From Candidatus Enterousia sp. (lineage in GTDB: Bacteria > Pseudomonadota > Alphaproteobacteria > Rs-D84), in the NCBI GenBank assembly GCA_045635705.1, contig JAZTWE010000021.1, forward strand, positions 1 to 42,079: a DNA stretch of 42,079 nt, given 5' to 3'. Shown here piece after piece: positions 11,862 to 37,870 of the stretch. A program made the position numbers and the translations under genes. Numbering within the stretch: position 1 is the stretch's first letter; every line of letters begins with the position of its first letter. The notes under the pieces are model-generated. The model saw only the letters and a list, made by a program, of their open reading frames with translations, was not told the DNA's origin and ran no database searches.

Positions 11862-12728
11862 ATGAATTATATTGAAATATTCTTAGAAGCCCTTTCTGCC
11901 GAACGCGGTCGCAGTGAAAAAACACTGGCCGGTTATGAATCAGACCTGCGCCTGGCAAACGACGCCATTCCTGGCGGCTTGATGGCGGCTGACACCACTG
12001 CAATCCAGGGCTATCTATCTACCCTGCCGGACAAGCCTTCATCCATCGCACGCAAGGCATCAGCCCTGCGCGGCTTTTATAAATTTTTAATGCTGGAAAA
12101 AATTATCAGCCACAATCCAATGGCCAACATCGAACTGCCAAAGCGCAACAAGGTCTTGCCTAAATTCCTGTCTATGGATGAAATAGAATTATTGATATCA
12201 TCGGCGGGCGACACAAAAAATTCAACCCGCCTGCGCGCAATGATTGAATTGCTGTACGCATCTGGCCTGCGTGTTTCCGAATTATGCGAATTACCAATGA
12301 CCGCCATCCTGGGCGACCGCCTGTTAATTCATGGCAAGGGCGCCAAGGAACGCATTGTCCCCATGCATACTAGCGCACAAGACGCCTTGCAACGCTGGCT
12401 ACGACTTCGTGACAATGACGAATCCAAATATGTATTTCCAACACACAGCAAAACCGGCCACATAACCCGCGACGGTTTTTTCAAGATTCTGAAAAAATGC
12501 GCTGTTTTGTCGGGTATTGACCCCAATCGTGTCAGCCCGCACGTTTTGCGACATTCATTTGCATCACACCTGTTGGCGGGTGGTGCAAACCTGCGTGCGA
12601 TACAAACAATGTTGGGCCACGAAGACATTTCAACAACACAAATTTATACCCATGTGATGCCTGAACAACTGACCGAAACCGTCAAATTGCATCACCCACT
12701 GGCAAAAACAAAGGCAAGCATAAAATGA
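11862..12728 (+). CDS. xerD: Tyrosine recombinase XerD
   Basis: ELLYASGLRVSEL, GKGAKER, SPHVLRHSFASHLL, LGHEDISTTQIYTHV. Confidence 0.9.
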   Translation: MNYIEIFLEALSAERGRSEKTLAGYESDLRLANDAIPGGLMAADTTAIQGYLSTLPDKPSSIARKASALRGFYKFLMLEKIISHNPMANIELPKRNKVLPKFLSMDEIELLISSAGDTKNSTRLRAMIELLYASGLRVSELCELPMTAILGDRLLIHGKGAKERIVPMHTSAQDALQRWLRLRDNDESKYVFPTHSKTGHITRDGFFKILKKCAVLSGIDPNRVSPHVLRHSFASHLLAGGANLRAIQTMLGHEDISTTQIYTHVMPEQLTETVKLHHPLAKTKASIK

Positions 12729-15685: not shown

Positions 15686-17899
15686 ATGGCTTCAAAGTTC
15701 AACTTTTTATCGATTTCCGGCAAAGGCAAAGGGTTGAAAATATTCAACTCGTCCAGCTACAAGGAACATGAACAAACCCCGATGGCCCGTATATTTTGGT
15801 CAATTCGTTGGGCAATTGGCATGTGGCTGGTTGCAGCGTTAATGTTTGCGGCATCATTTATCATTGAACACATTTGGCGATATGGTTGGTCCCCGGCCAG
15901 TCAACACTGGATGAACATATACCTGCAAAATATGTTGGCCACGGGCGGTCTATCTGTTATTGCAGAAATTCCCGCATGGATTGGTCGCTGTATTGCACGC
16001 CCCGACATTCCGTGCATAACCCCACTGTTTCCAATCATTGGTTATTATTTTCTGGCCGACGCCACATTAACCGACGAATTTAACCCACACGGCAAGGATA
16101 AATTTGCTGAAAAATCATCCAACAAGGCCAGCAAAGAAGACATTGAAAAAATGGGTCTGTTCGGCGGTTTTATGATGGTACTGGGATACTTCAAGAAAAA
16201 ACCATTGATGATGAAGGAATGCCTGTCCACCCTGTGCGTTGCCCCCCCAGGAACCGGTAAAACCGAAGGTGTCGTTATCCCAACAATTTTGGAATGCAAC
16301 GATGTTTCCATGATTATCAACGACCCAAAGCCAGAATTGGATTTGAAAACATCTGGCTATCGTGCAACCGTTGGGCCAGTATTCATTATGAACTGGGCAG
16401 GCCAGGACGATCCAGAACGCGGTATATACTACCCATCGTGGAATCCGCTATCCCCGGAACACGTCCCATTCGACCAGGAACAACGCGACCTGTACATTGA
16501 TGCATTGTGCAACACCTTGATTCCCGACAAAGAAGGATCATCTGCTGACCCACACTGGACAATTTCTGGCCGCGCCGGTCTGTCTGGCCTGGTACAATAC
16601 ATGGTGTCCAAGGTTGAACGCGCCAAGGCAAACGACTATTTCTATGCCCGCATATCAAACGGCACCTTTAATGCCGAAGATGCGGCTGTTTTATCTGATT
16701 ACTACCTATCAATGATAAGTGATCCGAACGCCTATGCGGCGCACGCCCTATTACAGCGCGGCGAATTAAACGCGATGAATTATGTTCATGTCGGCACATG
16801 GGCAAACATACCCGATGCATGGCGTGGCAAAGAAGCATCCTTGTCCATGATTCTTGACTGGTTAAACGCCAGCCAAATTGCCATCGCCCAGGACATCGAA
16901 GAACGCCGTCGCCAGGGTGATCAAATGGTTATGATGGCCGACCCAATGAAAGACCTGTTTCAAAAGGCTGTGGACGAAGCACGCCAGTATTCATACGCCC
17001 ACCGCGCGATACTTGAATTAACACAATTGGCAAACACACCCGACAAAGAACGTGGCTCTATCCTGTCAACAATCATGGCGGGGCTGGGCATTTTCCGCAA
17101 CGCCGCTGTTCGCAACCGCACCAGCCATTCTGACTTTCACTTTTCTGATCTGCGCGGTCTGCGCGACCCACGCGATGGCAAGATTAAACCCGTCACCGTC
17201 TATCTGTCCATCAACATGGTTGATGCCCAGGCATTAAATCCAATCACCGCAATATTTATTGAACTGATGACAAACTATCTGTTGGCAAATGCGCCCGAAC
17301 AATATCGCGACGGCAAACGCCTGGGACCATACCCTGTATTATTCGTGTTGGACGAAATGCCAAAAATGCAACGCCTGCAAGCGGTTATCCAGGGTCCCGA
17401 CCTGGGCCGTGGGCAAAAGATTTCATATCTGATTATTGGTCAGGACCTGCACCAAATTCAGGAAAAATACGGTGCCGATGCTGCCGCCACAATTATATCC
17501 ACCACTGCGGCCAAAATTGTTATGCGCCAAAACGACCCCGACACCGCGCAACGCTTTTCCACCATGATGGGCTATAAAATGAAAATGAAAACCGTCAAGG
17601 GGCCCGACGGCAAAGAAAAAGAAGAACCAGGTGAAGAATTATTATTCACCCCAATGGACATCATGAAAATGGCGGACGATAAACAACTGGTCATATTCCA
17701 GGGTTGGTATCATCGCCCGATTGAGGCTGACAAACAAATGGCATTCAAGGATCCAAAACTATCAAAACTGCGTGAAATGCCCAAGGCATCACCACTGCCC
17801 GAATTCTTGATTCCATCACACCATAAAATTATGGGATACAGTGGCGTGCCGAAAATATACGACAACGCCACCAAAGAAACAAAAGTTATAAATTTATAA
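15686..17899 (+). CDS. Type IV secretion coupling protein (VirD4/TraG family ATPase)
   Basis: N-terminal TM segments, Walker A APPGTGKT-x-GVVIPTIL, SMIINDPKPEL, WNPL, Walker B VLFVLDEMP, IIGQDLHQIQEKYG. Confidence 0.9.
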   Translation: MASKFNFLSISGKGKGLKIFNSSSYKEHEQTPMARIFWSIRWAIGMWLVAALMFAASFIIEHIWRYGWSPASQHWMNIYLQNMLATGGLSVIAEIPAWIGRCIARPDIPCITPLFPIIGYYFLADATLTDEFNPHGKDKFAEKSSNKASKEDIEKMGLFGGFMMVLGYFKKKPLMMKECLSTLCVAPPGTGKTEGVVIPTILECNDVSMIINDPKPELDLKTSGYRATVGPVFIMNWAGQDDPERGIYYPSWNPLSPEHVPFDQEQRDLYIDALCNTLIPDKEGSSADPHWTISGRAGLSGLVQYMVSKVERAKANDYFYARISNGTFNAEDAAVLSDYYLSMISDPNAYAAHALLQRGELNAMNYVHVGTWANIPDAWRGKEASLSMILDWLNASQIAIAQDIEERRRQGDQMVMMADPMKDLFQKAVDEARQYSYAHRAILELTQLANTPDKERGSILSTIMAGLGIFRNAAVRNRTSHSDFHFSDLRGLRDPRDGKIKPVTVYLSINMVDAQALNPITAIFIELMTNYLLANAPEQYRDGKRLGPYPVLFVLDEMPKMQRLQAVIQGPDLGRGQKISYLIIGQDLHQIQEKYGADAAATIISTTAAKIVMRQNDPDTAQRFSTMMGYKMKMKTVKGPDGKEKEEPGEELLFTPMDIMKMADDKQLVIFQGWYHRPIEADKQMAFKDPKLSKLREMPKASPLPEFLIPSHHKIMGYSGVPKIYDNATKETKVINL

Positions 17900-20325: not shown

Positions 20326-20356
20326 AAAAAAATCCCGCAGGTGCGGGATTTTTTTT
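20326..20356. terminator. Bidirectional intrinsic terminator
   Basis: aaaaaaatcccgca-gg-tgcgggattttttt between convergent genes. Confidence 0.85.
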
Positions 20357-20939
20357 ATCGTTGTAAATTGTTCATTAATTGTTTCAACGGGCGCACCAAC
20401 GGATTTGCCTCTTGAATATCGACCAAGGCCTGGGTCTGCTTTGCAATCTTTGTAATTGCATCTGAATACTTATTGGACTGCTTGCGCATATAATCACGCA
20501 TTGATGTACGATCGTATTCCCAGTTCTGAATATGTCCCGCCAGTTTATATAAATCACTATACATTTCTGGCGAATACGTTGCATTTCTGACCCCTTCAAT
20601 AAACACTTCGCGCGGACCATGGACAATATAGAATGCATCTGCAACATTCTTCATACCCTTGGCAGTCATACATTCAACTGCACGATTATTCCATTCGTTT
20701 TGGGTTGCCGTGCGTGAAAAGTGTTTGGCTGGATCTTTCATCACATCTTCCAGATAACGCAATACAACAACTGCATCACGACGATCATTCTTGGACAATG
20801 TATTCCAACGCTTTTTCAAATCTGAACGAATCAAGTAATAATAATTAAACAGTGCGATTTTAATTTGTGCATAAATAAAATCCACCCCATCAACATGATC
20901 ATTTAACACCGGACGACGATTTAATAAAGTTTTCTTCAT
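20355..20939 (-). CDS. Hypothetical 194-aa helical protein
   Basis: Start MKKTLLNRR with AGAGG upstream and a TTGACA...TATATT promoter-like sequence; no family recognised. Confidence 0.7.
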   Translation of the reverse strand: MKKTLLNRRPVLNDHVDGVDFIYAQIKIALFNYYYLIRSDLKKRWNTLSKNDRRDAVVVLRYLEDVMKDPAKHFSRTATQNEWNNRAVECMTAKGMKNVADAFYIVHGPREVFIEGVRNATYSPEMYSDLYKLAGHIQNWEYDRTSMRDYMRKQSNKYSDAITKIAKQTQALVDIQEANPLVRPLKQLMNNLQR

Positions 20940-21068
20940 ATAACACCTCTTGATCCCAACATGTTTAATATAGACAAACCTGCACAAATGTCAAGATTTT
21001 ATACATAAATTCTTGAAATTCATAATTTTTCATATAAAATTATCAGCCGATATAACAAAGGTTAATAC

Positions 21069-22901
21069 ATGAAAATTCGCAACATTGCAATTATTGCGCA
21101 CGTTGACCACGGCAAAACAACCCTGGTTGACAACATGCTGAAACAGGCGGGCACATTCCGCGAAAACGAACGCGTTGATGAACGCGTAATGGACAGCGGT
21201 GACATCGAACGCGAACGCGGGATTACAATTTCTGCCAAGCCAACATCCATTCAATGGGGCGAATACAAGATTAACATTGTGGACACACCGGGCCACGCAG
21301 ACTTTGGCGGCGAAGTAGAACGCATTCTGTCAATGGTTGACGGGGTTGTTTTGCTGGTTGACAGTGCCGAAGGTCCCCTGCCACAAACAAAGTTTGTATT
21401 ATCCAAGGCATTAAAACTGGGGCTGCGCCCAATCGTTTGTATTAACAAGGTTGACCGTGGCGATGCGCGTCCTGACGAAGTATTAACCGAAACATTTGAC
21501 CTGTTTGATAAACTGGGCGCAACTGATTCACAATTGGATTTCCCATATCTATATTCCGTGGGTCGTGATGGTTGGGCGGTACGCGATTTGAACGACGAAC
21601 GCAAGGACCTGACACCACTGTTTCAATTAATTGTTGATCATGTCCCTGCCCCCGATTGCAATGGCAGCCGCTGTCAATTGGATGCGCCATTTAAGATGCT
21701 GGCAACAACACTGGAAGCAGACCCCTATGTTGGTCGTATTCTGACCGGTAAAATTGAATCTGGGACCGTACGCGTTGGCCAGTCTGTCAAGGCCATCAAT
21801 CGCAACGGCGAATTTATCGAAAATGCCAAAATTACAAAAATCATTGAACATCGCGGCATTGAAAAGGTTTCCCGCGACACTGCATCTGCCGGCGACATCG
21901 TCGTCGTTGCTGGTTTTTCCAAGGCAACCGTGGCCGACACCTTGTGCGATCCATCTGTCACTGAACCTATTCCTGCGATGCCAATTGACCCACCAACCTT
22001 AACCATGACTTTCTTTGTTAACACATCCCCTTTGGCGGGCAAAAGCGGTAAAAAATTAACATCCCGTATGATTGGCGAACGCCTGTTCAAAGAAGCGGAA
22101 ACAAATATTGCATTAAAGGTTGAACAAAGCGAAAACAACGAAGCGTTCGAGGTTTCTGGTCGTGGCGAATTGCAATTAGGTATTTTGATTGAAACAATGC
22201 GCCGCGAAGGATTTGAATTAAGCGTCAGCCGCCCACGCGTTGTAATGCAAACAAACGAAAACGGCGAACGCCTTGAACCAATCGAAGATGTTGTAATCGA
22301 TGTTGACGATGAATTCAGCGGTGTCGTTATTGAAAAGATGACCAAGCGCAAGGCAACAATTACAGAAATGAAGGCATCTGGTGCTGGTAAAACCCGCATT
22401 GTGTTTTCTGCCCCATCACGCGGTCTGATTGGTTACCTATCTGAATTCCGCACCGACACACGCGGCACAGGTATTATGAACCGCGTATTTGATAAATACG
22501 ATGTGTACCGTGGCGCGATTCAACAATATCGTCCGGGCGTTTTGGTATCAATGGAAAAAGGCAGCGCCGCAACATACGCATTGTTTAACCTGCAACCACG
22601 CGGTACATTATTTATCGAACCCCAGACCGAGGTTTATTCTGGTATGATTATCGGCGAACACAGCAAAGAAAACGACCTGGAAGTAAATCCGATTAAGGGC
22701 AAAGAATTAACAAATATGCGCTCGGTCACGGCTGATGAAAAATTATTCTTGGCCCCACCACGCCGCATTTCACTGGAAGAAGCCCTGTCCTATATCTTGG
22801 ATGATGAATTGGTAGAGGTCACCCCCACAACAATTCGTCTGCGCAAGAAAGAACTGGACAGCAACACACGCAAGAAGTTAAAGAAACATATCGAAGAATA
22901 A
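21069..22901 (+). CDS. typA: Translational GTPase TypA/BipA
   Basis: IRNIAIIAHVDHGKTTLVD, DTPGHADFGGEVER, VSGRGELQLGILIETMRREGFE, DDELVEVTP. Confidence 0.97.
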   Translation: MKIRNIAIIAHVDHGKTTLVDNMLKQAGTFRENERVDERVMDSGDIERERGITISAKPTSIQWGEYKINIVDTPGHADFGGEVERILSMVDGVVLLVDSAEGPLPQTKFVLSKALKLGLRPIVCINKVDRGDARPDEVLTETFDLFDKLGATDSQLDFPYLYSVGRDGWAVRDLNDERKDLTPLFQLIVDHVPAPDCNGSRCQLDAPFKMLATTLEADPYVGRILTGKIESGTVRVGQSVKAINRNGEFIENAKITKIIEHRGIEKVSRDTASAGDIVVVAGFSKATVADTLCDPSVTEPIPAMPIDPPTLTMTFFVNTSPLAGKSGKKLTSRMIGERLFKEAETNIALKVEQSENNEAFEVSGRGELQLGILIETMRREGFELSVSRPRVVMQTNENGERLEPIEDVVIDVDDEFSGVVIEKMTKRKATITEMKASGAGKTRIVFSAPSRGLIGYLSEFRTDTRGTGIMNRVFDKYDVYRGAIQQYRPGVLVSMEKGSAATYALFNLQPRGTLFIEPQTEVYSGMIIGEHSKENDLEVNPIKGKELTNMRSVTADEKLFLAPPRRISLEEALSYILDDELVEVTPTTIRLRKKELDSNTRKKLKKHIEE

Positions 22902-22932
22902 AAACATCCCCATGAAACATGGGGATTTTTTT
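22902..22932. terminator. Bidirectional intrinsic terminator
   Basis: atccccatg-aaa-catggggat plus T run. Confidence 0.85.
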
Positions 22933-23203
22933 ACAACGCACACGGTTCAGTATATTCGTATGTACCACTGTCATCGGTATATGACATTCCAACCGGGGCA
23001 TACATTATGCAATCACCCGACGGATTTGATACCAGGCACGATTCCGCCGTGCCAACCGACACATAACCACTGGGGCACGATGTCGCAATAGTAATGTTGG
23101 GGGCAGCAATCGCAATGTAACCCGATGGACAACTGGTGCTGGGCGCGGCAGCAAACCCCGGTGATACCAATAGTCCAATCAATAAAATAAATTTATAATT
23201 CAT
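22931..23203 (-). CDS. Small secreted Cys-rich protein with duplicated TSCPSGY motif
   Basis: GAGGG then MNYKFILLIGLLVSPGFA (signal peptide); TSCPSGYIAI and TSCPSGYVSV; 6 Cys. Confidence 0.75.
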   Translation of the reverse strand: MNYKFILLIGLLVSPGFAAAPSTSCPSGYIAIAAPNITIATSCPSGYVSVGTAESCLVSNPSGDCIMYAPVGMSYTDDSGTYEYTEPCAL

Positions 23204-23218
23204 TTTTTCCCTCATTAA

Positions 23219-23701
23219 TTATCCAGGATTATTAAAAAAAACATCAATGGGACGCCCTGAAGTACCATAAATAAAGTTAGAGCACTTATCTGAACAGATA
23301 ATCGCACACGAATCCGCCCTATTTGCATCACCATACTCAGTTACAGCACTCTCATAAACCCACTCAGAAACCATCGGTTTTATCATTTTACACCAACAAT
23401 GATACCTATCTTCAGCCCCTTCCTCAAAGTTACCAGTCGATATCAGTCGAGCAACAGCACCTCGTCCTCCCCCAGCTGTAACAGAACACATACCAATGAA
23501 CGCAACGTCTACCATAGGACCATATGGATCATCTTTTGAATAGTCCACAGTTTGACAGTAGCCTTCGGTAACCGCTTCACCTGGACCATTAAAAGCCGTA
23601 ATGCACTCATAGTCTGCCCCCAACGCCACGCATTTTTGCACAGCGATGGCCGGCGCGGTCAGCAACGCGCCCACCGCAGTAATTGTTAAAAGTTTTTTCA
23701 T
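23219..23701 (-). CDS. Secreted Cys-rich protein (CWC...P..S.WV...C..C..C type)
   Basis: GGAG then MKKLLTITAVGALLTAPAIA (signal peptide), VQKCVALG; later HCWCKMIKPMVSEWV and CAIICSDKC. Confidence 0.8.
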   Translation of the reverse strand: MKKLLTITAVGALLTAPAIAVQKCVALGADYECITAFNGPGEAVTEGYCQTVDYSKDDPYGPMVDVAFIGMCSVTAGGGRGAVARLISTGNFEEGAEDRYHCWCKMIKPMVSEWVYESAVTEYGDANRADSCAIICSDKCSNFIYGTSGRPIDVFFNNPG

Positions 23702-23769
23702 TTGTTTCACTCCCTTTGTTTGTTTATTCGCGAAAAACCACACTTCGCCTGGGGCTTTGTGTGATAAAC

Positions 23770-23975
23770 AAAAAACCACGCGCGTAAACGAGTGGTCAGG
23801 AGGTTAGAAACAATCCGTTGAATTGCGTGCTTATTCGATATATTCGCAACCCTCCTGACACTAATATCAGGAGTCTTTCAACAGAATACACACACCGCGC
23901 CGCACCGCGACACAGGTTTATATTCCATCACAACGGCAGGGTTTCTACGCCCCATCACGACAAAATCATCGTGAC
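23770..23975 (-). ncRNA. Structured leader resembling a phage c4/CI antisense RNA cassette, with terminator
   Basis: Helix gtcaggagg (23795-23803)/cctcctgac (23851-23859) enclosing ttgcg/cgcaa; its bulge caacggattgtttcta is complementary in two blocks to upstream tagaaac-cctg-ccgttg (23931-23947); followed by the hairpin accactcg...cgcgtggt and a U run. Confidence 0.55.
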
Positions 23976-23981
23976 ACAGTC

Positions 23982-24010
23982 ATTATAACGGATTGTTTTT
24001 CAATGTTCAA
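23982..24010 (-). promoter_or_regulatory. Sigma70 promoter driving the c4-like leader and the Cys-rich genes
   Basis: Minus strand TTGAAC-17 nt-TATAAT. Confidence 0.7.
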
Positions 24011-24082
24011 CGCTTTGATAAATAAAAGTTTAGCGGGGTATTTATAAACAGACTTTTTGCAAAAAATTCTGTCTCATGTCTC

Positions 24083-24111
24083 AAAAAAAATCCCCCAAAC
24101 GGGGGATTTTT
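24083..24111 (-). terminator. Intrinsic terminator of ftsK
   Basis: aaaaaaaatccccc-aaac-gggggattttt right after the ftsK stop. Confidence 0.85.
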
Positions 24112-26356
24112 ACAACACCTGTCGCTTGCCACTAGCATCGGGTGCACTAACAATTCCATCTTGTTCCATACGCTCTATCAATCCTGCGGCTTTGTTATAC
24201 CCAATTGCCAACCGTCGTTGCAAATACGATATCGTCGGCTTTTTATCACGCACAACTATTTCCTTGGCCTGTTCATACATATCGGCATCTTTACCTGCTT
24301 TAATCTCTGCCTTGGACGAGGCGGCTGGCGCGGCGGCTTCTTCACTTTCGGTTACACCCGATGCGTATTCTGGTTCACCCTGGGTGCGCAAGAACTTACC
24401 CACACGATTTAATTCATCATCTGCGATAAACGCCCCATGAATACGAACTGGAACGCGCCCTGCCTCGCTAAACAACATATCACCACACGACAGCAAGTTT
24501 TCTGCCCCCTTTTCACCCAATGTTGTCATAGAATCGATATGGCTGCGCGCCTGGAACGAAACACGTGTTGGGAAATTCGCCTTGATAACCCCCGTAATGG
24601 TTGTTGCATCCGGTCGCTGGGTTGCCATCACCAGGTGAATACCCGCCGCACGTGCCTTTTGCGCGATACGCTGAACACAGGCCTCAACCTCTTTACGCGC
24701 CAGCGACATCAGATCAGCCACCTCGTCAATAATAATTACAATATATGGAATGTCTGACAAATCTACTTCTTGGGTTTCAAACAGTAATTCCCCTGTTTCC
24801 TCGTCCGTACCAACCGCAACCTGTTTGGTTATCTTTTCACCTTTGGCACGTTTTTCAGCCGCAATTTCGTTATAACTTTCCACATTGCGCGCATTCAAGA
24901 TTTGCAATTGCTTGTACCGCTCTTCCATTTCGCGTACCGCCCATTTCAGCGCATTCACCGCCGCCGCTGGGTCCAGTTTCACAATTGGTGTAATCAAGTG
25001 CGGAATATCATCCCAGAATCCAAAATCAACACCCTTTGGGTCAATAATCATCAACTTGCACTTGTCCGGCGTAAAGTGATAAACAATTGATGTAATAATT
25101 GATTGTACAAACACCGACTTGCCCGAACCCGTACGCCCAGCAATCAGCATGTGTGGCATCTTGGCCAAATCAAAGTACATTGGATTACCACCAATATCAA
25201 CCCCCAACGCCAACGGAATCTTGTACTTTGAATTAACAAATGTTTCATTCGCAACCAATGTCTGATAGCGCACTGTTTGACGTTTCAGATTAACCATTTC
25301 AACACCGATTAACTGTGTGCTGGGGATATGGGCAATACGAATATTTTCCGTTGCCATCGCACGCGTCATATCACGCACAGTATTATTAACATCGGCCATA
25401 CGCGTACCACTGTCTGGCATAAATTCATACAGTGTAACAATTGGTCCCGGCCGAATTCCAACAACCTTGCCGTTAACACCATATTCTGCAAAATGCACCT
25501 CCATCGCGGCGGCATTGCGTTTCAAATCAGGTGTCACAATATTTTTACCAAACACCGACTTTTCCAACAACTTTGGGTCTGGCAATTCATACGCCCCCGC
25601 CCGTCGCGCACGCGGCGCAATCGCCGCCACAGGTGCAGAAATCGCCTTGGTCGGCGTGGGCTTCTCAGTCTTTTTACGCAGCAATCTGCGCATTGGCTTT
25701 TTGTCTTCTTCTGCTTCTTCTGTTTCTTTGGTTATCTCTTCTTTTTCCATTGGTGGCAATGGCGCCGTCAAATGGAATGCCGCGCCAACCACACGCACCG
25801 CACGCCAACACATCCGCATCAGACTTTGCACATGCACCCACTTTATATGCAACAGCATCCCCGCCATAACAAAGAACACACCCAACAACAAGACACCAAT
25901 TGCAACCGCCGTCTCGCGTCCAACCAACGACACAATATCATTACTGGCGACGGCACCAAACACACCACCAAAACTGGCCGATGGCATAATCAGTCCCAAT
26001 CCAGACGCCCCTGCACATACGGCGATAAACGCGCGCAAGAAATTATATTCCGGACCATTTTGAACCGCCCAGCCACACATCGCGACCAACCCCGCCCGCG
26101 CAACAAACAGTATCACGAACAGTGCCGGCAACACACCAACGCCATAGCGTAAAAATCCAACAATCCAGCCCATTACCGACTGGGCACCAAATGTACTGGC
26201 CACGCCGAACCCGTCCAAATATGGATTAAAAAACATCAATGCGAACACGGCCCACAATGAAAAAAACAACACCACGCCCCCAGCGACACGCAGTGCCAAA
26301 CTCTTTAACGCGCGCGATGCGCGTTCTGGTAAAAACTTTGATTTAGTATTGCTCAT
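24110..26356 (-). CDS. ftsK: DNA translocase FtsK
   Basis: N-terminal TM domain; DLAKMPHMLIAGRTGSGKS, IIIDEVADLM, ATQRP; gamma domain SYLQRRLAIGYNKAAGLIERME. Confidence 0.96.
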   Translation of the reverse strand: MSNTKSKFLPERASRALKSLALRVAGGVVLFFSLWAVFALMFFNPYLDGFGVASTFGAQSVMGWIVGFLRYGVGVLPALFVILFVARAGLVAMCGWAVQNGPEYNFLRAFIAVCAGASGLGLIMPSASFGGVFGAVASNDIVSLVGRETAVAIGVLLLGVFFVMAGMLLHIKWVHVQSLMRMCWRAVRVVGAAFHLTAPLPPMEKEEITKETEEAEEDKKPMRRLLRKKTEKPTPTKAISAPVAAIAPRARRAGAYELPDPKLLEKSVFGKNIVTPDLKRNAAAMEVHFAEYGVNGKVVGIRPGPIVTLYEFMPDSGTRMADVNNTVRDMTRAMATENIRIAHIPSTQLIGVEMVNLKRQTVRYQTLVANETFVNSKYKIPLALGVDIGGNPMYFDLAKMPHMLIAGRTGSGKSVFVQSIITSIVYHFTPDKCKLMIIDPKGVDFGFWDDIPHLITPIVKLDPAAAVNALKWAVREMEERYKQLQILNARNVESYNEIAAEKRAKGEKITKQVAVGTDEETGELLFETQEVDLSDIPYIVIIIDEVADLMSLARKEVEACVQRIAQKARAAGIHLVMATQRPDATTITGVIKANFPTRVSFQARSHIDSMTTLGEKGAENLLSCGDMLFSEAGRVPVRIHGAFIADDELNRVGKFLRTQGEPEYASGVTESEEAAAPAASSKAEIKAGKDADMYEQAKEIVVRDKKPTISYLQRRLAIGYNKAAGLIERMEQDGIVSAPDASGKRQVL

Positions 26357-33854: not shown

Positions 33855-36800
33855 TCATGTCTCATAAAAAATCCCGCCATTGGCGGGATTATTGTTAATC
33901 ACACTATACGCTTTTATCGACAGTCCAGGCAACATCAACCCATCGCTATTCGGACTGCTGTAATACTTAATCAGACTGGCCGGCAATTGTTTATTCAACA
34001 AATCACGAATTGCGCCAATTTCCTGTGGTAATTTAGAATAATCACCCGATGTCAGTTCAACAAATTCATCTTTGCTGATATCTATGCTCTTAAACGCACG
34101 CCATCCATCTGTATCACCCATCATAAATGGAATTGTCATACCATTCCATTTTACCACAACAACTGCACGGCCCGCCACCAGTGCAACTGGGGAATTATTT
34201 CCATAAACTGTTTCCAGCGACACCAACGACACTGCATTACCCGCAATCGCGCCCAGCGTTCCCGCCGCCACAGCCATCAGATTATTATAATTCATCGCCG
34301 CCTGTTGATTGTTTGTCGCCGACTTATCATCATCTTTGTCCATCGCATTACCAATCAACAACGCACCACCGACAACCGCACCTGCACCAGCAACACCAAT
34401 CGCCGCCGCCGCCAGTCCTGACAACCCTTTCTTTTTTTCTGGCACTGGCAATGCCGTATTGCTTTTACCATATTCTATATTCGTCGTCACAGGAACAGGC
34501 GCAGCACCCTGATTTTTGTCACCACTGGTATCCTCTCGTTTACCCGCGCCATCGTCACCCGGCGGCGTTCCAGCATTATTATCATCATTACCACCACCCG
34601 GCCCTGGGACAACCCCACCACCTGGCGTTGAACCAGGTGTTGCGCCGGTCGTCTGTGCCTGCAACGGAACATCCGCAAGATTTTTAGCACCTGCGCCACC
34701 ACCCATAACTAATCCACCCGCACCTGCGCCCAACCAATTCGGATTCCAAACAGTTGATGTAACTGTTCTCGTGACATTTCTAACAATATTATTTTGTCTA
34801 ATATAATCTTCTATATTACCAATAAACTTTGAACCACTGCTTCTGCCCAGGCCTGTACCTCTATTCGTATACCAGCGTCCACCACCGCGCAAATTAGCAC
34901 TTGGATTCCAACCAATTTCACCCGCCGGCAATTTATCAGCATACTGTTGTGTACTTTGGTTGTACCAACGATTTCCTTGTCGTATCCAACCATTAGTTTT
35001 CAAATCATCCACAACCTGTGCAACATCGTCAATTCTTTCTGTCACAGTTTGGGTACTGCGTACAAACTGTGTCAAACTTGCAACAATTGCAACCAGTCCT
35101 GCAACAAACGCAACCGTATCCGCAGAATTCTTAAATGTCTGCCAACCATTCTTTCCATTTTTTGGGTTCAATGAACATGTTGACAATGTTTTATCTATCG
35201 AACCAACCTCCACACATTCGACCTGATCGCCATTATCATCACACTGACCAACATCCTGAACTGTACAATTATCTACAATTTCTGCAAAGTACGAATCCGG
35301 TGCATTCTGTAATACGCGTGCAATCATTTCATCCAAGCCCGCACGACTTTCAACATCCAAAGAATCCATACCTATCATTTTTTCCAGGTTTTCACGCAAG
35401 AACTTTTCTATTTCTTCTGGCGTACCGGATGCCACAAGCCTGTTCATTTCCAACATATACTTATCTTGATCGTATTCCATTTTAATGTCAGCACCTTCGG
35501 CCAACAAAGTCGCAGTTGCCCCAACTGTTGTTGCCCAAAACACAACAGAACTTCCACCTGATGGCACCGCCAAAACAATCGCAACAGTCGCCCCAGCAAC
35601 AGTTGCCGTAACGCGGGTTGCAGTATTCATACCCTTTGCAAACGCGGCTGCAGGCAATTCACATATTTTTTTATCACTGTTCCATTTTGCCTGTTTACAC
35701 TGTGGACAGTTTGTTATATTAAGCGCGGCAACATCTGAACACTGCTGTTCCGTCAACATACCACAAACTTCACCATCATAAACCCCACCCATTAACTTGC
35801 AATCAATTGCCTGATACCCCGCATTTGATTCATACTTAAAAAGTTCTGATAAATCATCAAACACAAAGTCATGCGCCACACCGTCAATATAGCATGTCAT
35901 AATATCATCACGACTATCGTGACAACCACTGCCCGCATAACGCTTTGGCGTACCATCACACGAAAAACTGTTAACTTTTTTACCCAGTGTTCTTTCAACA
36001 TAAGCCAACACTTGCCTATCCAGCGTATTATTTGCATTTACCTGCTCACCGCTACAGAACGCAAAATTATCCAAACCACTGACTTTATTCAGTTCATTTG
36101 GTCTATAAACAGCCCCAACATCAATTGCACATATTGTTGCCCCACCACTTGGTTGCAAACTAGAACTAAAACCAAAGAACTTTAAAGATTCATTAACCTG
36201 GCTACACTTTGTCGCATCAGCTGTTTTGCAATAATCCGGCCAAGAAAACACATACCCACCACCGGCCGAATGCCCTGATTTTTGAAAATCCAACCCATGA
36301 ATATTTTTACATACCGCCTCTAACAAGTTATTACGAACCTTGCTATCACCCGTTGATGTCACACTATCAAATTTAAATTCATAGAACGCTTTTTTATCAC
36401 CCGACACGCATTGCAAATAATCATCAGATGCAACCAGCATCTTTCGCTGATTTCGTTGAACATCAGAACAAACTATATTTTTATCTTTTGACACATTATA
36501 AACAAACGCCTGGGCCAGTTTTTCGGCTTCACGCTTGCCAACCGATACATTCTTGAAAGTATCTTTATAGCAATATGTTTGAACATCATTGCCATATTTT
36601 TGTTTCAGTTTATTAACCTCGTCCGTATCACACACGGCCCATCCCTGGACACTGGCGCGCGACAACAGGTCCGATACAAACGCCTGGCATTTTGATTTAC
36701 CTGCACTTTGTCGAATATTCCAACCGGCCTTTTCGCAAATCAGCCACATATCCGACCCAATCAGTCCACCACCATTTTGTTCAGCCAGCGCAACCCACGC

Positions 36801-36938
36801 CGTCAAAACATTTGTGCGATGCGCCGCATCAACACGCGATTCAACCACGTTGCGCACTGCGCCTTCGTTAATTTTAATCAGTGCAAAACTGGGGCTAAAC
36901 AAAAACAAAGATAAAATTGCAATCAGGAATTTTTTCAT
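33855..36938 (-). CDS. Large (about 1027 aa) secreted or membrane Cys-rich hypothetical protein
   Basis: Signal peptide MKKFLIAILSLFLFSPSFA; many Cys; internal hydrophobic hairpin; Gly/Pro linker; C-proximal TM helix; ATGA overlap with the upstream gene. Confidence 0.85.
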   Translation of the reverse strand: MKKFLIAILSLFLFSPSFALIKINEGAVRNVVESRVDAAHRTNVLTAWVALAEQNGGGLIGSDMWLICEKAGWNIRQSAGKSKCQAFVSDLLSRASVQGWAVCDTDEVNKLKQKYGNDVQTYCYKDTFKNVSVGKREAEKLAQAFVYNVSKDKNIVCSDVQRNQRKMLVASDDYLQCVSGDKKAFYEFKFDSVTSTGDSKVRNNLLEAVCKNIHGLDFQKSGHSAGGGYVFSWPDYCKTADATKCSQVNESLKFFGFSSSLQPSGGATICAIDVGAVYRPNELNKVSGLDNFAFCSGEQVNANNTLDRQVLAYVERTLGKKVNSFSCDGTPKRYAGSGCHDSRDDIMTCYIDGVAHDFVFDDLSELFKYESNAGYQAIDCKLMGGVYDGEVCGMLTEQQCSDVAALNITNCPQCKQAKWNSDKKICELPAAAFAKGMNTATRVTATVAGATVAIVLAVPSGGSSVVFWATTVGATATLLAEGADIKMEYDQDKYMLEMNRLVASGTPEEIEKFLRENLEKMIGMDSLDVESRAGLDEMIARVLQNAPDSYFAEIVDNCTVQDVGQCDDNGDQVECVEVGSIDKTLSTCSLNPKNGKNGWQTFKNSADTVAFVAGLVAIVASLTQFVRSTQTVTERIDDVAQVVDDLKTNGWIRQGNRWYNQSTQQYADKLPAGEIGWNPSANLRGGGRWYTNRGTGLGRSSGSKFIGNIEDYIRQNNIVRNVTRTVTSTVWNPNWLGAGAGGLVMGGGAGAKNLADVPLQAQTTGATPGSTPGGGVVPGPGGGNDDNNAGTPPGDDGAGKREDTSGDKNQGAAPVPVTTNIEYGKSNTALPVPEKKKGLSGLAAAAIGVAGAGAVVGGALLIGNAMDKDDDKSATNNQQAAMNYNNLMAVAAGTLGAIAGNAVSLVSLETVYGNNSPVALVAGRAVVVVKWNGMTIPFMMGDTDGWRAFKSIDISKDEFVELTSGDYSKLPQEIGAIRDLLNKQLPASLIKYYSSPNSDGLMLPGLSIKAYSVINNNPANGGIFYET
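33866..33890 (-). terminator. Intrinsic terminator-like hairpin inside the last codons of the large ORF
   Basis: aatcccgcc-aat-ggcgggatt followed by tttt on the minus strand, upstream of the in-frame TGA at 33855-33857. Confidence 0.7.
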
Positions 36939-37870
36939 TTTGCCAACTCCTTCTCGCAATTATCTGCAACGGTTGCCGCTTTCTTAATCGCACTAATTTG
37001 TGTCGCATTAAATATTGTGGCCGTCGCCGATGCCGCCGTGGTTCCAATCGACAGAACATTCGCCGCCGTATTCAGGTTCTTTTCCTTTTTCTTGCCCGCA
37101 TCAGTATTATCATCACGGGTCGCATCTGTATTTGCCATTGCACTGGTCACAGTACCGGCCGCCCCCGTCGCAGCACCAACCATTGCCGACACCTGGGCAC
37201 CCTTGGCCCGTTTATCAATCTTGGACAAATCAACAAATTCCCATTCGCCACATGCATCAACAATACGCTGTGCCTGGGACACATCTGTGCCTTCTATGCG
37301 CGCCTGGCCGATTGCATTACGCAATACATTTATTGAATTCTTACACGCATTTATACGCGCATCCAAATCCATATCGATTTTGTTTCCGCCAGCAATAACG
37401 GCACCCGCAACATTGGTCACCGTACTGCCCGCCAGCAACCCCGTACGCCAATTTCCCAATGCCTTAGACTGCTTTTCCAGTTTATCTAGTTCTGTCTTTT
37501 TTGTTTCCAAACTTGAAATCGCATCGTTATACGAAGTATTAAATTCCGCCTGAAACTGTTCCAAATCATCTTCCGTGGGTTCAGTAGTTTTTTCTTGAAT
37601 TTGGCGCAGTTTTTCTAATAATTCTTCCAGTTCTTCGGCTTGTTTATCTTTATCAGTCTTTACAAAACCGGTCACCGTTGCACCGACACCCGCCGCGGTA
37701 CCCACCCCGGTAATTGCAGTATTTATGCCGGCCATTTTCTTTAATTCCGACATACTGTCGCCAATACCACTGCATGCCGAAATCGCGCCAGACATCGCAC
37801 CATAAAAATCAGACGATGCCATTGCACCCCCTGATATCAGCAACGATAAAATAATCAGAATCCCCCGCAT
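36935..37870 (-). CDS. Secreted helical protein with Gly/Ala-zipper segments and a coiled coil
   Basis: Signal peptide; GVGTAAGVGA and GAATGAAG segments; E/K-rich coiled coil; two-fold internal repeat. Confidence 0.85.
   Translation of the reverse strand: MRGILIILSLLISGGAMASSDFYGAMSGAISACSGIGDSMSELKKMAGINTAITGVGTAAGVGATVTGFVKTDKDKQAEELEELLEKLRQIQEKTTEPTEDDLEQFQAEFNTSYNDAISSLETKKTELDKLEKQSKALGNWRTGLLAGSTVTNVAGAVIAGGNKIDMDLDARINACKNSINVLRNAIGQARIEGTDVSQAQRIVDACGEWEFVDLSKIDKRAKGAQVSAMVGAATGAAGTVTSAMANTDATRDDNTDAGKKKEKNLNTAANVLSIGTTAASATATIFNATQISAIKKAATVADNCEKELAK

Follow-up and report, generated by a model that had tools for sequence, protein, structure and literature searches.

A chromosomal leader RNA with the layout of phage c4-type antisense cassettes precedes secreted-protein genes in Candidatus Enterousia

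The window analyzed here is a contig of 42,079 nucleotides (nt) from Candidatus Enterousia sp. (GenBank assembly GCA_045635705.1, contig JAZTWE010000021.1), a member of the uncultured alphaproteobacterial order Rs-D84 whose genomes, smaller than about 1 Mb, are described in PMC12306168 as coming from the guts of farm animals. Judged from its sequence, the minus strand of this contig encodes, directly upstream of two genes for secreted Cys-rich proteins, a structured RNA leader some 205 nt long that has its own promoter and runs from a start near position 23976 to a U-run ending at 23770. We are inclined, with some reserve, to regard this leader as a chromosomal, amplified and locus-specific variant of the c4, IsrK and CI kind of RNA that acts as an attenuator. 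An earlier description of the same stretch, referred to below as the original prediction, had already proposed a domesticated c4-like switch at this position; the present work compares that proposal with the many other copies of the leader, with the known RNA families and with other explanations for the same features.

Results

Layout of the leader

All the elements named in the original prediction, that is, the promoter, the hairpins, the two-block complementarity, the terminator and the GAAACAA box, were located on the minus strand between positions 23702 and 24010 (Table 1). The sequence GGGGCG-TAGAAAC-CCTG-CCGTTG spans 23953-23931 and contains two boxes, A and B, whose complements A' and B' lie in the sequence CAACGG-ATT-GTTTCTA at 23820-23805; the latter is enclosed, along with TTGCG..CGCAA, by a closing helix of 9 base pairs (bp) in which GTCAGGAGG (23859-23851) pairs with CCTCCTGAC (23803-23795; inverted repeat I11). 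Taken as a whole, the 291-nt leader has a minimum free energy of -98.4 kcal/mol (z = -4.09), and 0 of 200 shuffled sequences fold as well. One part had been overlooked, namely a third copy of the segment resembling an anti-Shine-Dalgarno (anti-SD) sequence, which we call element 1 and which is able to pair with the SD-like element 2 that forms the 5' strand of the closing stem, the 3' strand being element 3.

The 3' part of the leader has the fold of a C4-type RNA: two hairpins, H4 and H5, lie inside a closing stem, the loop of H5 carries B', and A' leads from H5 to the closing strand as a single-stranded linker. Its 5' part has the layout of the c4-a1b1 type, in which a first hairpin (P0) is followed by a small hairpin (H2) with A in the loop and, 4 nt further on, by B, both boxes being complementary to A' and B' downstream; support for the H2 stem is modest.

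Covariation of the helices

Our own parsing accepted 104 of the 110 copies of the leader that were located, the remaining six having no CCTCC anchor or less than 150 nt of upstream flank; one further copy, with two mismatches in A:A', was left out before the analysis of box B (n = 103), in which B:B' was counted with our own script since MAFFT had misaligned box B. The two long-range helices are kept almost without exception: A:A' is paired over 7/7 positions in 102 of 104 copies (overall, 723 pairs are Watson-Crick and 2 are G.U, with 3 mismatches), and the cognate B:B' helix reaches 6 bp or more in 102 of 103, where non-cognate combinations average 4.72. The original prediction had proposed to check whether paralogous Cys-rich genes have cassettes with co-varying bulge and target sequences; the letters of the boxes do differ from copy to copy while the pairing is retained.

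The same behavior extends to the helices that make up the rest of the leader. In 18 own-genome copies A:A' is 97.6% paired, with 5 of 7 pairs changed on both sides, and when P0, A:A' and the helix between elements 1 and 2 (1:2) are taken jointly the pairing amounts to 96.7%, with 15 of 21 pairs changed on both sides; no shuffle reached this score, and partners slid out of register were only 36-54% paired. P0 itself is 92.4% paired in alignment A1, all 7 of its 7 pairs having changed on both sides. In alignment A3, which contains 101 distinct rows, the closing stem (2:3) is 99.8% paired, H4 97.7% (3/3 pairs changed on both sides), H5 97.4% (5/5) and the alternative 1:2 helix 96.5%; RNAalifold as well as the pair counts supports 2:3, H4 and H5. 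Elements 1, 2 and 3 moreover covary three ways, as in CUCCAAC / GUUGGAGG / CCUCCAAC and CCUUCAGUC / GGCUGGAGG / CCUCCAGCC, which argues that both pairings of element 2 have been kept by selection. Covariation, a comparison of sequences, thus supports P0, A:A', 1:2, 2:3, H4, H5 and the terminator T2 as predicted helices. The long hairpin H3 varies in length from 23 to 91 nt and is terminator-like in 48 of 103 copies, the window copy not being one of them.

Two extensions of this scheme were considered and discarded. A small open reading frame (ORF) behind the SD-like element 2 would require a UUG that is not conserved (it is replaced by C in the window copy), and an extension of the long-range helix by GGGG:CCUC fails in that changes on its 5' side are not matched by changes on the 3' side. 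The conserved H4 loop GAAUAUAUCGAAUAAG has no partner elsewhere in the genome beyond scattered matches with three mismatches, and the 3' end of the 16S rRNA, which was sought for comparison with the anti-SD-like elements, is absent from this assembly.

The wobble pairs also bear on the nature of the complementary boxes. In the core helices G.U pairs number 104 and A.C pairs 29, an excess which indicates an RNA on the minus strand and not a DNA inverted repeat. The many inverted repeats at the locus, together with the gene of a XerC/D-like recombinase at 11862-12728, might otherwise be taken to mean that the boxes are inverted repeats of an invertible or recombining DNA element. We hold this to be exceedingly improbable, since neither the strand-specific wobble nor the three-way covariation of elements 1, 2 and 3 is what such an element would leave, and the letters of the boxes differ at each locus, unlike the sites of a single recombinase. 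Furthermore, the copies on contigs C21 (the window) and C6 differ by an insertion or deletion (indel) and not by a flip, and the contigs of four public runs contain no strand-changing joint, although the latter is weak evidence, as contigs can miss rare forms.

Attenuator architecture and proposed mechanism

The position of the terminator relative to the closing stem suggests how the leader might work. T2 (median stability -10.2 kcal/mol across copies) shares 3-6 nt of its 5' arm with the 3' strand of the closing stem in 84 of 86 copies, so that segments 1, 2 and 3 and the 3' arm of T2 make up the classical attenuator arrangement of mutually exclusive 1:2, 2:3 and 3:4 pairings upstream of a gene. 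That gene is close by: a strict search found an SD sequence and an ATG within 130 nt of T2 in 82 of 103 copies, most of the others having SD sequences of the GGGGG type or truncated flanks, and 74 of these 82 encode N-termini resembling signal peptides. The median distance from the end of T2 to the start codon is 34.5 nt, which leaves no space for a second promoter, and the gene would therefore be reachable only by read-through of T2.

These distances also speak to the idea that the element is a stand-alone gene for a trans-acting small RNA (sRNA) of the sRNA-Xcc1 kind, ending at T2, with an independently expressed downstream gene whose adjacency is incidental. A promoter and a terminator of its own, as well as matches to the sRNA-Xcc1 model that remain below the cut-off (see below), would agree with such a gene; however, the regular presence of a translation start and a signal peptide behind T2, the lack of room for a separate promoter and the location of the partners of A and B in the same transcript make it very unlikely.

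In the attenuator that we favor, pairing of A and B in cis with A' and B' would keep the 1:2 hairpin, in which element 1 is able to take element 2 away from element 3, T2 would form and transcription would end. Conversely, if A' and B' were free of A and B in cis, H5 and the closing stem would form, the base of T2 would be taken up and the polymerase would enter the gene. Such a release might occur if A stays in its own hairpin, or if cognate RNA from the same locus competes for the boxes; if the leader behaves like IsrK, the balance between the two folds could be shifted by short or processed RNAs of the locus.

A private box code for each locus

The boxes are diverse, with 24 distinct A', 72 distinct B' and 92 distinct A'/B' combinations among the 103 copies. 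Within every genome with at least four parsed copies the combinations are all distinct (19/19, 16/16, 15/15, 8/8, 6/6, 5/5 and 4/4); shared combinations are found only between genomes, presumably at orthologous loci. Even in the 42 pairs of close within-genome paralogues, whose P0 is 86% and whose core is 89% identical on average, no pair shares box B and only five share the variable part of A. The suggestion of the original prediction that the RNA could act in trans on paralogous loci is thereby rendered unlikely, as a private A/B code would confine any effect in trans to the locus of origin.

It is conceivable, but improbable in our estimation, that short or processed RNAs with such a private address reach, in trans, no nascent transcripts but those of their own locus and so create a self-reinforcing ON/OFF state for each of 20-40 secreted-protein loci, amounting to RNA-based phase variation of the surface or secreted repertoire without any change in the DNA by way of a domesticated phage-immunity RNA module.

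Alternatively, the leader may be a purely cis-acting attenuator, akin to a riboswitch or bound by a protein, in which A:A' and B:B' are no more than a variable outer helix of the sensor domain, the conserved H4 loop and the junctions bind the ligand or protein, action in trans plays no part and the resemblance to c4 has arisen by convergence. This explanation, which we consider possible without thinking it probable, accommodates the conserved, unpaired state of the H4 loop and the junctions, the succession of a multi-helix domain and a terminator with overlapping alternative pairings, and the absence of any match to a covariance model of the c4 clan; helices that vary freely are normal in structural RNAs, and P0 and T2 covary as well. 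It leaves unexplained, however, the part-for-part match to the P1 cassette, including an a1 box in the 8-nt loop of a 4-bp hairpin and an a' box as linker, and it does not lead one to expect that box B should differ even among paralogues with 86-89% identity, as it does in all 42 pairs. The regulated genes, moreover, are mixed secreted proteins with no common metabolic theme.

Points that weigh against a c4-type attenuator

The reading of the leader as a c4-type attenuator has to be set against a number of results that count against it, among them the scores of the Rfam covariance models. The cut-offs are 45 bits for C4 (RF01695), 46.7 for c4-a1b1 (RF03163; both families belong to clan CL00128), 53 for sRNA-Xcc1 (RF02221) and 50 for isrK (RF01394), and as a positive control P1 itself reached 68.8 bits with the C4 model and 51 bits with c4-a1b1. 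C4 gave no match at E <= 10 in the region 23600-24150 of the window, nor at E <= 1 in the whole genome, the 19 other own copies and 20 copies from other species; c4-a1b1 found none in the window region or in the same 19 and 20 copies, and with the c4-clan, Xcc1 and isrK models alike the 20 copies from other species gave no match at E <= 1. In the opposite direction, a model built from the core of the leader did not match P1 c4 (best score 3.6 bits), so that common descent with c4 is unproven and convergence is possible. Nor did blastn of the leader against phage and plasmid collections, or a search of viral contigs with the core pattern, return a match, and the Rfam E-value scan of 23600-24150 yielded terminator-type noise only.

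The closest approach to a known family was made by sRNA-Xcc1, the best-scoring one, whose model aligned in full length, but below its cut-off, with the 3' module of 4 of the 19 other own copies (43.9 bits for the copy on contig C34, then 32.9, 32.4 and 29.0 bits); the whole-genome search with this model gave three matches, all below the cut-off as well, and the window copy gave none at E <= 10. isrK matched the 5' module of a single own copy, again below the cut-off (21.3 bits, E = 0.25). The Infernal scan proposed in the original prediction has therefore come out negative for C4 and c4-a1b1, and of the c4-like switch it is the layout, which agrees part for part with the annotated P1 immI cassette, that stands, and not a match to any Rfam c4 model. 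The comparison with c4 is apt as a matter of architecture, while membership fails on every score.

A second group of results concerns the box next to the start codon, which the original prediction had read as a downstream target. In the window copy the complementarity of GAAACAA (23708-23702) to UUGUUUC of A' is real, yet across the family it is weak: in 74 de-duplicated copies the ribosome-binding site (RBS) region from -22 to +6 matches its own AUUG+A' over 4.78 nt and non-cognate ones over 4.42 nt, a difference of 0.36 nt. No permutation reached the cognate mean, and matches of at least 7 nt occur in 5 copies where 2.5 are expected. In the same 74 copies box B has no downstream partner; neither B and B' nor the coding region nor the identity control gave a signal, and no further cognate partners of A, A', B or B' were found in T2, the 40 nt past T2, H3, P0, H4 or the 60 nt at the start of the coding region. 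Complementarity of the RBS box is hence a weak tendency in a subset of copies and no defining part of the leader.

The remaining points touch the evidence of pairing and the public runs. As the copies are relatives, their counts are not independent, and more independence is credited to them by the shuffle statistics than they have; alignment A3, having been fitted to the structure of the model, leans toward it; and the H2 stem is mostly a GGG/CCC helix of 3 bp, that is, about three conserved pairs, with weak covariation. The 18 public runs listed are assembled contigs with small shares and show no RNA ends, and where the contigs of four of them were compared the cover was fragmentary, so that gaps in it carry no meaning, and the paralogous leaders inflated depth in DNA and RNA libraries alike.

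Occurrence in the genome, the genus and the class

BLAST and nhmmer located 20 copies of the leader in the own genome, an assembly of 811 kilobases (kb) that is 80% complete. A 21st, divergent copy with a GC-rich closing stem, at position 1840-2160 of contig C13 (G000), was found only by the sRNA-Xcc1 model (32.9 bits); in this copy, too, A:A' (TAAGAC/GTCTTA) and B:B' (TACAAA/TTTGTA) are cognate. A covariance model built from the 113-nt core of the leader (R1) has matches in 69 of 101 related genomes, including 54 of the 60 sampled genomes of Candidatus Enterousia, with at least 37 matches in the top genome. Other families of the same order also carry the leader (f2, 3/4 genomes; f3, 9/19; f5, 1/2; f6, 1/3), and no match was obtained in twelve further families, each represented by one genome.

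A class-wide draw of 150 genomes added seven from outside the genus, with one or two weaker R1 matches each (36-56 bits), and the layout of A:A' and B:B' is kept in all three of the class-level matches that were inspected. Weaker relatives with both helices precede a prepilin-like gene (L200, G196:C6:80801-80923, minus strand) and a lipoprotein gene (L199, G127:C45:709-830) in other alphaproteobacterial families. A further relative (L202, G107:C41:18093-18156), upstream of a gene for a small non-secreted protein, is limited to the inner domain, which is closed by a G/C stem of 9 bp; going by its sequence it looks more like a classical small RNA of the Xcc1/c4 type, and at E <= 0.01 it has no Rfam match. 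When the weak class-level matches were scanned with Rfam, tRNAs were all that came up.

The leader family is uncatalogued. The whole window contains no family of Rfam 15 at the gathering cut-offs, none of the papers listed on Enterousia concerns an RNA, judging by title or abstract, and no paper came up on an RNA motif in Rs-D84. What is new here is the part-for-part match to the c4 cassette, the uniqueness of the box code within a genome and the quantified weakness of the RBS box.

Features of the locus and its neighborhood

The coordinates of the parts discussed above and of the adjoining features are collected in Table 1.

Table 1. Parts of the leader and adjoining features in the window
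Feature	Position	Strand	Remarks
Terminator after the stop codon of ftsK	24106-24092	minus side	precede the leader promoter
Sigma-70-type promoter TTGAAC-17-TATAAT	24010-23982 (TTGAAC 24010-24005; TATAAT 23987-23982)	minus	10/12 matches; strong
P0, 5' hairpin GUCACGAU / GUCGUGAU, 6-nt loop	23975-23954	minus	covariation
H2, small hairpin GGGG-CGUAGAAA-CCCU with box A in loop	23953-23938	minus	counterpart of P1 a1 hairpin
Box A, UAGAAAC (DNA TAGAAAC)	23947-23941	minus	in H2 loop
Box B, CCGUUG, 4 nt 3' of box A	23936-23931	minus	counterpart of P1 b1
H3, long variable hairpin	23930-23876	minus	not terminator-like in window copy
Element 1, CUCCUGA	23873-23867	minus	putative anti-antiterminator; pairs with element 2
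Element 2, GUCAGGAGG (UCAGGAGG in the three-way set with CUCCUGA and CCUCCUGAC), SD-like	23859-23851	minus	closing stem 5' strand; partner element 1 or 3
H4, first inner hairpin, short stem capping conserved loop GAAUAUAUCGAAUAAG	23849-23823	minus	covariation
H5, second inner hairpin, CAAU/AUUG, box B' in loop	23825-23811	minus	counterpart of c4 b' hairpin
Box B', CAACGG	23820-23815	minus	in H5 loop
Box A', GUUUCUA, linker between H5 and closing strand	23811-23805	minus	counterpart of c4 a'
Element 3, CCUCCUGAC, anti-SD-like; closing stem 3' strand	23803-23795	minus	overlaps base of T2
T2, intrinsic terminator, stem (GA)CCAC..GUGG(UU) and U6	23797-23770 (stem 23795-23776; U6 23775-23770)	minus	found in model matches
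Extra hairpin CACAC..GUGUG and U5	23763-23733	minus	in window (C21) and C2 copies; not in C6 copy
SD sequence AAGGGAG	23716-23710	minus	
A-like box GAAACAA, between SD and ATG	23708-23702	minus	
ATG	23701-23699	minus	
Gene for 160-amino-acid secreted Cys-rich protein with signal peptide	23701-23219	minus	no Pfam family
Second gene of the two-gene unit, 94-amino-acid secreted Cys-rich protein	23215-22931	minus	no Pfam match
Bidirectional terminator 3' of the two-gene unit	22906-22926		

A -10 element with at most one mismatch lies 5' of the P0 hairpin in 91 of 99 copies, and the 17-nt spacer of the promoter carries a conserved motif, AAACAATCCGTT. In the window copy this motif (23987-23998) is complementary over 12/12 positions to B', AUU and the start of A' (23808-23819; inverted repeat I3), and it is kept in many copies regardless of the letters of box B; the motif may be an operator, and its match to B' in the window copy may be a coincidence. 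Between T2 and the SD sequence (23716-23775), the extra hairpin and its U-run are flanked by inverted repeat I5, TTGTTTGTTTAT / ATAAACAAAAAA; the absence of this hairpin from the C6 copy amounts to a simple indel between GTGGTTTTT repeats.

The genes downstream encode secreted Cys-rich proteins, as had been predicted, and a shared tail with Cys residues (CY.P.G....D.SG.[FY].[FY]T..C.[YF]) ends many leader-linked proteins, among them those encoded at 22931-23215 of the window and on contigs C1, C2, C5, C22 and C35; none of these proteins matches a Pfam family. The locus is variable, again in agreement with what had been proposed: in one gut metagenome contig the flanks 22900-23008 and 23687-23774 are kept and the 678 letters between them (23008-23687) are replaced by 1065 others, which indicates that the gene cassette behind the leader differs between strains. 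No phage genes were found within about 10 kb of the leader, as the original prediction had stated, the neighbors being housekeeping genes. Amid such genes stand, on the plus strand, those of a XerC/D-type tyrosine recombinase (11862-12728) and of a VirD4/TraG-type coupling protein (15686-17899), and two minus-strand ORFs, 20355-20987 (210 amino acids) and 33855-36959 (1034 amino acids), have no Pfam family at E <= 1e-5.

Discussion

RNAs of the c4, CI and IsrK type are known as one-off switches of immunity or induction in phages and prophages, whereas here the same architecture appears as a chromosomal family that extends through a lineage. The leader has been amplified to dozens of copies in genomes of less than 1 Mb, each copy before a variable gene for a secreted Cys-rich protein, which is a large amount of sequence for one regulatory RNA, and it is likely to be the main control of the secreted repertoire in these uncultured gut bacteria, whose presentation of secreted proteins probably depends on it. 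The 92 distinct codes among 103 copies are, in addition, natural candidates for orthogonal RNA pairs, which could provide a test bed for regulation in cis versus in trans and possibly a source of orthogonal RNA parts.

Among the closest known systems is the c4 cassette of phages P1 and P7. The GenBank annotation of P1 places a1 (7 nt) 32 nt past the -10 element of the promoter, b1 (8 nt) 7 nt further on, a C4 RNA of 77 nt, and a2 and b2 just upstream of icd. In the Rfam alignments the c4-a1b1 part of P1 consists of a 5' hairpin of 7 bp followed directly by a hairpin of 4 bp with a1 in its 8-nt loop, while in the C4 RNA a closing stem holds two hairpins, the second of which has b' in its loop and is joined to the closing strand by a', a single-stranded linker of 7 nt; between b1 and C4 lies a hairpin with a U-run, to which H3 corresponds in the 48 of 103 Enterousia copies where it is terminator-like. 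The leader has the parts of the P1 cassette in the same order and with similar sizes: P0 comes first, then H2, whose loop of 8 nt contains A, then B after another 4-6 nt, H3 and finally the closing stem, which encloses H4, H5 (carrying B' in its loop) and the A' linker and is 9 bp long as against 17 bp in P1. Unlike P1 c4, the leader contains an additional element 1, and its domain is followed at once by an intrinsic terminator; it lies in the chromosome with no phage genes close by and with downstream genes other than icd or ant, and exists in at least 20 copies per genome; and downstream targets of the a2/b2 type are weak or absent.

With sRNA-Xcc1 the 3' module of the leader shares its shape, that is, a closing stem of 9 bp, two hairpins, a 6-nt linker and an ACC-type tail with U residues. 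sRNA-Xcc1, however, is found on integron cassettes, plasmids and phages, whereas the leader has no integron or plasmid context and its 3' module is embedded in a transcript with cognate upstream boxes.

The likeness to IsrK of Gifsy-1 lies rather in the mode of switching. According to PMC4825925, the cassette switches between two folds, a short RNA made from it working in trans on the read-through transcript of the same cassette and flipping it between these folds. The Enterousia leader shares with IsrK and STnc1160, as described there, a complementary RNA downstream in the same transcript and alternative folds whereby the middle of the 5' module is paired either locally or with a downstream stretch; in copies with a terminator-like H3, its 5' module may also end at a terminator of its own or be read through. 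The isrK model also matches P1 across its a1/b1 part (35 bits). In contrast to IsrK, the internal terminator is optional in the leader (a terminator-like hairpin resides in H3 in the 48 of 103 copies mentioned above, to which the window copy does not belong), and it is secreted-protein genes, not an antirepressor, that would be the targets.

Going by its description, the CI RNA of P4 with seqA and seqC, which PMC4825925 discusses, is comparable as well, being an antisense RNA in a leader with complementary upstream boxes that brings about termination of transcription; the Enterousia leader differs in its non-phage context and in having no clear downstream box. Finally, the exclusive pairings 1:2, 2:3 and 3:terminator upstream of a gene are those of three-helix attenuators and terminator-type riboswitches, to which, unlike the classical attenuators, the Enterousia leader adds a layer of locus-specific long-range boxes.

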